Shown here in pieces: positions 6,001-9,000 of a stretch of DNA of 64,000 nt; within the stretch, counting starts at the first letter, position 1; each line of letters opens with the position of its first letter. The position numbers were made by a program. This DNA comes from Escherichia coli O127:H6 str. E2348/69. Its GTDB lineage: Bacteria; Pseudomonadota; Gammaproteobacteria; Enterobacterales; Enterobacteriaceae. The stretch lies in NCBI RefSeq assembly GCF_000026545.1, contig NC_011601.1; one strand, written 5' to 3'.

Positions 6001-9000
6001 TTGTGGTAATGGGCGGCTGGTGGGTGTTAGCGGCACCTGCCAGCCATCTGCTCATGCGTTGGGGTCACAAGCAAACCTCAGGCCCATCTGCTTTGCGCAA
6101 AAGCGGTATGAGCCTATCAGAGAAGTGCTTATTGATCTATGATTAATACTGTAAAAATATCCAGTTGTGAGTTAATCAACGCTGATTGCCTGGAATTTAT
6201 CCAGACCTTACCGGAAAACTCTGTCGATCTGATAGTCACAGACCCGCCATACTTTAAAGTGAAGCCCGAGGGCTGGGATAACCAGTGGGAGGGCGACGAT
6301 GATTACCTGAAATGGCTGGACCAGTGTCTGGCGCAGTTCTGGCGGGTACTGAAGCCTGCCGGAAGTCTTTACCTGTTCTGTGGTCATCGCCTGGCATCTG
6401 ACACCGAAATCATGATGCGTGAGCGCTTTAATGTGCTGAACCACATTATCTGGGCGAAGCCGTCCGGACGCTGGAACGGGTGCAATAAGGAAAGTCTGCG
6501 GGCGTATTTTCCGGCAACAGAGCGCATTCTGTTTGCAGAACATTATCAGGGACCGTATCGCCCGAAAGATGATGGCTATGTGGCACAGGGGCGCGAGCTA
6601 AAACAGCACGTCATGGCCCCGCTGATTTCTTACTTTCGTGATGCGCGTAAATCACTGGGAATAACGTCAAAACAGATAGCGGAAGCCACCGGAAAGAAAA
6701 ACATGGCTTCGCACTGGTTTGGTACCAGTCAGTGGCAGTTACCGAACGAGGGTAATTACAACAAATTGCAGGCGTTGTTTGCGCGTGTTGCGGCAGAAAA
6801 ACATCAGCGCGGGGAACTGGAAAAGCCACACCACCAGCTGGTCAGCACATACAGTGAGCTGAACCGGCAGTATACGGAACTGCTGAGTGAATATAAAAAT
6901 TTGCGGCGGTATTTCGGTGTGACGGCGCAGGTTCCGTACACCGATGTCTGGACGCATAAACCGGTGCAGTACTATCCAGGGAAACATCCGTGCGAAAAAC
7001 CGGCAGAAATGCTGCAGCAGATAATCAACGCGAGCAGTCGTCCGGGAGACCTGGTTGCAGATTTTTTTATGGGTTCAGGTTCAACGGTAAAAGCGGCGAT
7101 GGCACTGGGGCGTTGTGCGATTGGTGTTGAGCTGGAGACAGGACGTTTTGAACAGACAGTCAGGGAAGTTCAGGATTTAATCGTTTGAAACGGATGGGAT
7201 TGCAGAATTAATTACGCACCATTATTATTCTGCTACCGGCCCTTTAGCTCAGTGGTGAGAGCGAGCGACTCATAATCGCCAGGTCGCTGGTTCAAATCCA
7301 GCAAGGGCCACCATCACATACCGCCATTAGCTCATCGGCAGAGAGCGTCAGCTTTCGAAACTGGCTGTGTGGGGCCCGGGTCCCCGATGGCAATCCATTA
7401 TTTGCATTATGCGTTGTTAGCTCAGCCGGACAGAGCAATTGCCTTCTAAGCAATCGGTCACTGGTTCGAATCCAGTACAACGCGCCATATTCATTCTTCC
7501 AGATTTCTTCCGGCAGAGCCTTATACTGGAATATACCTGGCTCAGGATATTGTTGAAAATATTATATGTTTGTCAAAAATAAAAGTTCTGTTAAGTATTG
7601 ATTGAGTGTTTGTTATACGGTCTAATGGTTTTTTCAGTATTAAATATTTATCATTCATATGGTGTGGGTAGAGTGAATATTGATGAGGCGTCGGGGTGTT
7701 TCATCCTTAGGCAGCGTATTGATATAGTCAATGCAGCACGAGCAAAGGCCTTCAGCCGTTTGACAGTTTTGTTCTGTACTCCTGATCGTCTTTCGGGAAG
7801 AGACGTTATTCTTCTGAATAGTGATGCTATACAGAGGGTTTGCGATGAGTTCATGGTTGCTAATTCAGAATTATTTGCTCTTGTTCAGGAGTACAACAGA
7901 ATAGCCAGGACCTGTGGTATGGATGAACTTCGGATTACTCATCTGGGGTAGATACATATCTGGATTATCACCTGTTACGGTAAAAAGTGATTGCTTACTG
8001 TTTTTGTGAATGGCATTGCAGCAGCCGGATAATGTCAGTGCTGGCTGACTGTGTACTGGTGGCGGGTGTGGTGGTTGTTGCTTTCCCGTTGCTGAAAAAG
8101 AAAACGCCAGACTGTTAGCCGGAGAAATTTTTAAATACTTCACAATTCAGGCGGTTGACTGTTGTCTGGTTTGCGGGGAGTTTGTTAAAAGAAACTGGCA
8201 TGGTGAATCCACCTGTGCGGAGGGGCAATCAGCGAGTAGGTATATGGGATAATCGCGGATTCAGGTGCTGGTACTGAATTCACCGGGAGGCACCCGGCAC
8301 CATGCAATGGCACATAGCGCCACTCTCCAGCCCCTCTCCGGAGGGGCTGTTTATATTGATTTTGTCAGATGTGAGTAAACTCCTTATGGACTTTGTTGTT
8401 TTAGTCCATAAGGACATATTTGCAGAGTGCAACGGTTATTAAAGCATTCATTCAATACGTTATCTGTATTTGTAGGGCATTCCTGGCTGTTTTTGATTAA
8501 ATTCCAGAATGTTTTATTGAATGGTACTACGTTGTAAATGGTTACAGGTAGCACTTTGTTATTGAGCATGATACCTGTGTGAGTCAGTGTAAATATACTT
8601 TCAGGAGGTAAGAAAGCATCCGATTGATACCAGATTATTAATTTTATTTTACTCCATATGACTGAAAAAGATATTCCGCATGATGGCTGGATAACTGTAT
8701 CAATCACAATCCACTTCATTTAGTTTCCTTGTTTATGCCTTGCTGGTGATGTTCTGAAAAGTATAAATGATATTTTTGATTGTAAACCATAGAGCAGAAT
8801 TATTTTTCTGATGTTGTTTATTGTTTATTTAAATGCAGGGTGGTTTATATCTCGTCTTGTAGTTTATCCATGCATATCTGCTTGATGATGAGGTTTTTAT
8901 TTAAGGTATGGTTTTGTGTTTTTTCTGTATTACATGTCAGGTATTTTAAAGAATTATTTTTCAGATGGTGGAAAGAACCATGGCATTTAAACACTATGAT

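Follow-up and report, generated by a model that had tools for sequence, protein, structure and literature searches.

Shiga toxin (Stx)-converting lambdoid phages are recognized by the genes stxA and stxB, which lie between Q and its neighbouring tRNAs on one side and an esterase gene on the other. The corresponding slot in the lambdoid prophage PP5 of enteropathogenic Escherichia coli (EPEC) E2348/69 contains neither gene. It is described here within a window of 64,000 nucleotides, the whole stretch of DNA that was analysed (NC_011601 1,280,001-1,344,000; the NC_011601 coordinate equals the window position plus 1,280,000). The offset was taken from gene coordinates in the supplement of an EPEC study of RNA interactions via ligation and sequencing (RIL-seq), e.g. 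E2348C_1244 at 1,286,139-1,287,188, corresponding to window 6139-7188. The slot itself (7488-8964), a region of 1477 bp, is a 100% match to E. coli E2348/69. The identity, conservation and coding status of its parts are established, and it is very probably a mosaic cassette of accessory ('moron') genes in the late-operon leader of PP5, composed of orf92, a DUF3927 gene, an STnc100 RNA and iraL. Named families cover three of the four, among them an experimentally characterised protein of identical sequence. The finding is real, yet largely ordinary.

IraL has been described in uropathogenic E. coli (UPEC) CFT073, where it increases the log-phase level and the stability of sigma-S (RpoS). The protein co-purifies with the adaptor RssB and interacts with it in two-hybrid assays, via the N-terminal domain only. 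RssB binding and sigma-S stabilisation were seen in CFT073 and K-12 backgrounds, and a sigma-70-type promoter drives the transcription of CFT073 iraL (Hryckowian et al. 2014, mBio; PMC4045071).

Small RNAs (sRNAs) of the STnc100 family are represented in strain EDL933 by 11 transcribed copies, one of which (STnc100_4) has been confirmed by Northern analysis. EcOnc27/sRNA103 is bound by Hfq. It is located just downstream of stx2B in enterohaemorrhagic E. coli (EHEC) and overlaps single nucleotide polymorphisms (SNPs) associated with haemolytic uraemic syndrome (HUS). Overexpression of EcOnc27 was reported to alter the transcript levels of fimZ and espA. An STnc100-family RNA has been found in vesicles of Shiga toxin-producing E. 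coli. STnc100 is structurally akin to the abundant EPEC sRNAs PasD1 and PasD2, which map to PP4 and PP2, respectively, and not to PP5.

The anti-adaptor gene iraL

The gene iraL (E2348C_1245; 8384-8719, minus strand) encodes 111 amino acids and belongs to the IraM/IraL/RssC family of RssB anti-adaptors. The protein matches NCBIfam NF007393 'anti-adapter protein IraM' with 162 bits (cut-off 121, residues 1-110), phrog_4407 (E 3e-73) and the K-12 IraM chain in PDB 8twd (E 9e-32). A tblastn comparison revealed 100% identity to CFT073 IraL over 111 amino acids, and the RefSeq protein WP_000871291.1 is common to E2348/69 IraL and C_RS06710 in the potB prophage of CFT073. Membership of the IraL type has been defined as an identity of 95% or more with CFT073 iraL across the complete coding region (PMC4045071), and E2348C_1245 is of this type. 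A K-12-type IraM, for which an identity of 95% or more would be needed both with iraM and with the regulatory region of that gene, was ruled out by comparison of sequences, without a pattern search for a PhoP box: K-12 IraM and E2348/69 IraL share 61.7% of their amino acids, and the upstream DNA cannot be aligned. The gene is therefore iraL and not iraM.

The 5' untranslated region (UTR) and the sigma-70 promoter of iraL occupy 8720-8790 on the minus strand, with the UTR at 8752-8720 and the transcription start site (TSS) at 8752. The -10 hexamer TATACT (8765-8760) and a -35-like TTTACA (8786-8781) were assigned by eye. The sequence obtained for CFT073 by rapid amplification of 5' cDNA ends, ACATCACCAGCAAGGCATAAACAAGGAAACCA, equals the minus strand from 8752 to 8721 with one mismatch, and the -10 TATACT is intact. 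Two substitutions beside the promoter distinguish it from CFT073: the first affects the base immediately preceding the TSS, the second the spacer base that adjoins the -35-like hexamer. The mRNA has been detected in EPEC by RNA-seq (baseMean 11.7) and in 11 RIL-seq chimeras with the sRNA Spot 42. These chimeric fragments cover 8353-8689 of the minus strand (NC_011601 1288353-1288689) and were obtained under the non-activating condition; they hint at sRNA control of iraL. The gene together with its promoter occurs in 1445 genomes.

Expressed from its own sigma-70 promoter on the strand opposite the late operon, IraL would bind to RssB's N-terminal domain. The blocked adaptor would no longer deliver sigma-S to ClpXP, and sigma-S would be stabilised during growth. 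The experiments on the identical CFT073 protein suggest that IraL acts in the same manner in EPEC E2348/69, as a lysogenic-conversion function. Carriage of the gene could raise sigma-S in growing cells of E2348/69, an extension of known biology.

The STnc100 RNA and the upstream genes

The GC content of the slot amounts to 34-41% at 7400-7800, 50-52% at 8100-8400 and 29.5-34.5% at 8400-9000, so that AT-rich flanks enclose a GC-richer structured core. A preliminary description had taken the GC-rich stretch for a structured RNA with a terminal terminator, and the covariance-model search bore this out. The full model of RF02076 (STnc100; positions 1-206) matches 8169-8358 on the plus strand in cmscan with 123.6 bits (gathering score 47, E 1.3e-27). 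The RNA proper probably spans about 8198-8358, i.e. ~160 nt. The terminator-like CCCCTCTCCGGAGGGG hairpin lies within the match and represents the intrinsic terminator of the family; the terminator scan lists this hairpin, CAGCCCCTCTCCGGAGGGGCTG plus TTTATATT, at 8328-8349. The consensus fold of eight STnc100 copies comprises 35 pairs, seven with compensatory changes. Its multi-helix core GCAUGGUGAAUCCCCCUGUGCGGAGGGG...CACCGGGAGGCACCCGGCACCAUGC is invariant, which makes the core helices uninformative for covariation.

Upstream of the RNA, the region 8131-8197 (plus strand) contains a ~20-nt element TTAAATACTTCACAATTCAGG, a -35-like TTGTCT (8162-8167) and an extended -10 TGtTAAAAG (8183-8191). 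Diverged copies at five other loci, including a Stx1 phage, retain the three motifs (the ~20-nt element, TTGTCT/TTGCCT and the extended -10 TGtTAAAA) with constant spacing. Since the spacing is fixed across diverged copies, a dedicated sigma-70 promoter is suggested, which would place the 5' end of the RNA near 8198. Co-oriented with the late operon, STnc100 would extend from this promoter-like region to its intrinsic terminator. The ~20-nt element, TTAAATAC(C/T)TCACAATTCAGG at 8131-8152, precedes the STnc100 core by ~45-65 nt, is kept in diverged copies including the one after stx1B, and could be a regulator-binding or UP-like site.

STnc100 occupies the same slot in CFT073, in the phages mEp460, JLK-2012 and vB_EcoS-640R1 (two copies) and in a metagenomic E. 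coli contig (two copies). In the Shigella phage 75/02 Stx, it is located 79 nt past the stx1B stop. An identity of the PP5 RNA with PasD was rejected, as the PasD probe sequence had no match in the window with up to three mismatches allowed. RefSeq annotates a pseudogene coding sequence ('incomplete hypothetical protein'; 8188-8313, minus strand) wholly antisense within STnc100, and likewise in CFT073. Its product has no family match in the profile libraries searched, and the annotation is probably an artefact. According to the literature, PasD1 also has such an annotated pseudogene on the opposite strand.

The position of stxAB in Stx phages is taken in PP5 by orf92 (7673-7951, plus strand), a conserved core of 92 amino acids that begins with GTG. 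Two in-frame starts further upstream, ATG at 7625 and TTG at 7598, would yield 108 and 117 amino acids, the latter being the open reading frame (ORF) 7598-7951. The product has a full-length match to phrog_2873 ('unknown function'; E 1.8e-69, profile positions 1-108 of 108) and no match in Pfam, NCBIfam, PADLOC or PDB sequences. The ORF had been called unrecognised: it is indeed uncharacterised, but already catalogued. In comparison with a 59%-identical homologue, dN/dS is 0.27 in frame versus 1.15 and 0.82 off-frame, and the differences at the three codon positions number 24/23/44, an excess at the third. This second clade (~59% identity) aligns gap-free over 92 residues from GTG 7673. A profile search of 1.84 billion representatives retrieved 20 family members, none linked to a named family. 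Among them are relatives of 91-106 amino acids and ~21-39% identity, with conserved TPDR, ANxEL and EYN blocks. CFT073 and mEp460, a viable phage, carry intact copies, and the gene of one distant homologue likewise follows a DUF1133 Q-like gene and a tRNA. The dN/dS and third-position excess, the distant relatives, the shared slot position and the intact copies together mark orf92, as judged from sequence, as a real protein-coding gene. Guilt-by-association via the distant homologue was rejected, because only the position after Q and tRNA is in common and neither DUF3927 nor STnc100 is nearby.

The AlphaFold2 model of the orf92 product is a two-helix hairpin with a predicted local distance difference test score (pLDDT) of 86. 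A structure search returned generic coiled-coil hairpins only (best E 0.33 in PDB and 0.46 in BFVD, none at or below 0.001). Of 5426 complete E. coli genomes, 1184 (about 22%) carry the gene. RefSeq has no feature under the match in E2348/69, CFT073 and 11 of 12 sampled genomes.

A DUF3927/TciB-like small protein is encoded at 7987-8118 (plus strand), with 43 amino acids from GTG 7987; the RefSeq version, named 'DUF3927 family protein', has 29 amino acids from 8032. The ORF matches Pfam PF13064 (E 8.6e-26, model positions 7-53 of 53) and phrog_1470 'TciB-like' (E 6.4e-12). It is homologous to tciB of phage JLK-2012, which sits after the TerB-like tciA in the same slot. The protein has a single hydrophobic segment with KKK behind it. 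Together with orf92, the gene of this predicted single-pass membrane peptide fills the stxAB position between tRNAs and sRNA, and both are probably co-transcribed with the Q-antiterminated late transcript. A 15-bp indel, GGGTATCAGTTAGCG, at 8120/8121 right after the DUF3927 stop is present in CFT073 and not in E2348/69. It resembles a duplicated TTAGCCGG context.

The ORF 7598-7951, the minus-strand ORF 8384-8719 and the terminator hairpin are thus present where the preliminary description had put them. Its statement that the cargo is unrecognisable has to be given up: the minus-strand ORF is iraL, the RNA is STnc100, and a third ORF which it did not list (7987-8118) belongs to DUF3927. The proteins of both slot ORFs match profile families with E < 1e-48, so that these are not chance ORFs, and the RNA matches Rfam with E 1e-27. 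The ORFs are retained in related prophages; neither their decay nor a toxin remnant, named beforehand as signs against the cargo, was found.

Nucleotide homology to the Stx1 phage restarts at window 8131, 45 nt past the stx1B stop, continues through the sRNA core and restarts again at the esterase start. The fixed frame thus consists of STnc100 and the esterase. By sequence comparison, the cargo before the sRNA varies and is stxAB, tciA-tciB or, in PP5, orf92-DUF3927. The cargo after the sRNA varies likewise, being an AgvB-like minus-strand RNA in 75/02 or the AT-rich iraL cassette in PP5 and CFT073. The module is 98% identical to CFT073 over 1.5 kb, and the full module occurs in 862 of the 5426 complete E. 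coli genomes.

Alternative readings of the slot

The positional analogy to Stx phages would agree with a decayed stx or other exotoxin operon. This reading was ruled out and retains practically no probability: tblastn with Stx1A and Stx1B against the whole window gave a best E of 2.6 and no match inside the slot, which is filled by intact genes under selection. If the slot encoded a novel toxin, effector or anti-phage defence activity, only orf92, with or without the DUF3927 protein, could account for it; this reading is improbable. It would be in line with a real, conserved gene that has no functional annotation in any searched library, lies at the stxAB position and has a distant homologue that likewise follows directly on a Q-like gene and a tRNA. 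PADLOC, however, yielded no family for orf92, the DUF3927 protein and IraL, and the orf92 sequence shows neither an evident signal peptide nor a secretion feature. The generic helical hairpin of the model has no significant structural neighbour, 92 amino acids are far fewer than in known AB toxins or effectors, and the rest of the slot is covered by known families. No evidence for a toxin, effector or defence role of the slot was found, and the earlier suggestion of such cargo gained no support. A speculative proposal, rather doubtful at present, is that orf92 founds a family of ~92-aa two-helix-hairpin proteins confined to the lambdoid moron slot after Q and tRNA, which might, in the manner of the neighbouring IraL, bind and neutralise a host regulator or a function of competing phages. 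If true, orf92 would be a new lysogenic-conversion or anti-defence factor at the toxin position of Stx phages. Very unlikely is the opposite reading of orf92, a chance ORF in AT-rich spacer DNA. RefSeq leaves orf92 unannotated in E2348/69, in CFT073 and in 11 of 12 sampled genomes, which would fit this reading, as would the lack of a strong Shine-Dalgarno sequence before GTG 7673. Against it stand the dN/dS of 0.27 in frame versus about 1 off-frame with the third-position excess, the length kept and the blocks invariant across relatives of 21-64% identity, the PHROG match and the confident AlphaFold2 fold.

STnc100 might act mainly in cis on the late transcript instead of as a trans base-pairing sRNA. 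It could influence how moron mRNAs from upstream, such as stx, are processed or how stable they are, or it could serve as a Q-sensitive terminator and insulate the esterase and lysis genes. In the phages examined, STnc100 always lies between the moron slot and the esterase, with its terminator on the late strand. The invariant multi-helix core is unusual for seed-type sRNAs, and HUS-associated SNPs have been published in the copy downstream of stx2B. The promoter-like motifs kept immediately upstream of the RNA, the reports of Hfq binding and of discrete transcripts for members of the family (EcOnc27, PasD, STnc100_4 Northern) and the reported shift of fimZ and espA transcripts by EcOnc27 make a mainly cis-acting RNA unlikely. 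The reading as a mosaic cassette has to be weighed against several points of its own. No lead to a role of orf92 or DUF3927 emerged from the evidence gathered. The U-tract of the sRNA is weak (UUUAUAUU). At 8209, the PP5 copy has CCACC versus CCCCC elsewhere, which creates an A:G mismatch in the conserved, otherwise invariant 5-bp hairpin P2 (~8207-8225). A promoter scan of the region gave 8 matches versus 7.7 in shuffles and hence no excess, so that the case for an sRNA promoter is made by conservation across copies. No entry for the STnc100 copy of PP5 appears in the searchable EPEC RIL-seq summary table, nor did other records show its expression or Hfq binding directly, and the RNA-seq signal of E2348C_1245 is low. 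Taken as a mosaic cassette, what occupies the stx slot of PP5 in place of stx is the IraL/STnc100 cassette, which earlier work on UPEC, EHEC and EPEC has described, and the result chiefly tidies annotation.

Neighbouring features and comparison with known systems

The order of a Q-like gene, a late terminator, tRNAs and a NanS-p-type esterase without stx had been read from the sequence beforehand. All of these elements were located, and the slot carries accessory cargo in the late-leader architecture of Stx phages, as had been expected. The Q-like gene (4923-5477) matches phrog_753 'anti-termination protein Q-like' (E 3.5e-78). A hairpin with a T-run at ~5636-5668 was found by direct reading of the sequence and is not listed by the terminator scan. 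The stretch directly 3' of the Q-like gene that includes it (5563-5668) has a weak, sub-threshold similarity to isrK/AgrB (E 0.2-0.3). It could be a short late-promoter leader RNA plus terminator. A DNA methyltransferase gene (E2348C_1244) occupies 6139-7188. The tRNAs before the slot (NC_011601 1,287,238-1,287,487) are located at 7238-7313 and 7411-7487. Between them lies a degenerate third tRNA (7321-7394; 22.2 bits versus a threshold of 29), the middle one of an ileZ-argN-argO-type cluster (7321-7397). It is called neither by ARAGORN nor by the current RefSeq annotation; its CFT073 counterpart scores 45.5 bits. The SASA/NanS-p-type esterase is encoded at 8965-10830.

PasC, an Hfq-dependent sRNA validated by Northern analysis in EPEC, maps to 10832-10909 on the minus strand (NC_011601 1290909-1290832), antisense to the 3' end of the esterase gene and the region downstream. 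Its probe matches 10860-10884 exactly, and its terminator is the hairpin 10867-10838. The window scan gave no Rfam match at gathering threshold for the PasC site. ISEc13 (IS4 family) and IS200C, within 11265-13234, are inserted between esterase and holin and part the lysis genes from the late promoter region. An STnc490 RNA match (12643-12766) falls into this stretch. Other Rfam matches above threshold in the window are the sok antitoxin RNA next to hokD (1262-1428), IS009 (28269-28467) and C0299 (57198-57276).

The anti-adaptor IraM of E. coli K-12 is induced by Mg2+ starvation. It is homologous to IraL of PP5, belongs to the same NCBIfam family and is likewise encoded in prophage-derived DNA, next to e14. 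Its upstream regulatory DNA, in contrast, does not align with that of PP5. CFT073 resembles PP5 in its identical IraL and in a lambdoid prophage that carries the iraL module after Q, tRNAs, DUF3927 and STnc100. It differs in being UPEC and not EPEC, and in a truncated DUF1737 gene downstream, where PP5 has the full NanS-p esterase gene. The RNAs of EcOnc27/PasD type share with the PP5 RNA the core helices, the terminator and the place just upstream of the esterase, whereas the window lacks the probe sequence of PasD.

JLK-2012 and other non-Stx lambdoid phages have the same order of Q, tRNAs, two small ORFs, STnc100 and esterase as PP5. The segment of DUF3927 and STnc100 in JLK-2012 is 88% nucleotide-identical to PP5. 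The first gene is the TerB-like tciA in JLK-2012, and the helical-hairpin orf92 (phrog_2873) in PP5. The Shigella phage 75/02 Stx follows the order Q, (stx), STnc100, esterase and holin/lysin, which agrees with PP5 except that stxAB is replaced in PP5 by orf92 and DUF3927. Between sRNA and esterase, 75/02 carries an AgvB-like minus-strand sRNA where PP5 has iraL. The AgvB-family (anti-GcvB) match in 75/02 is located at 4666-4725 on the minus strand and reaches 56.6 bits versus a threshold of 56. The layout of the module, with STnc100 and the esterase fixed and the flanking cargo variable, helps to compare Stx and non-Stx lambdoid phages.

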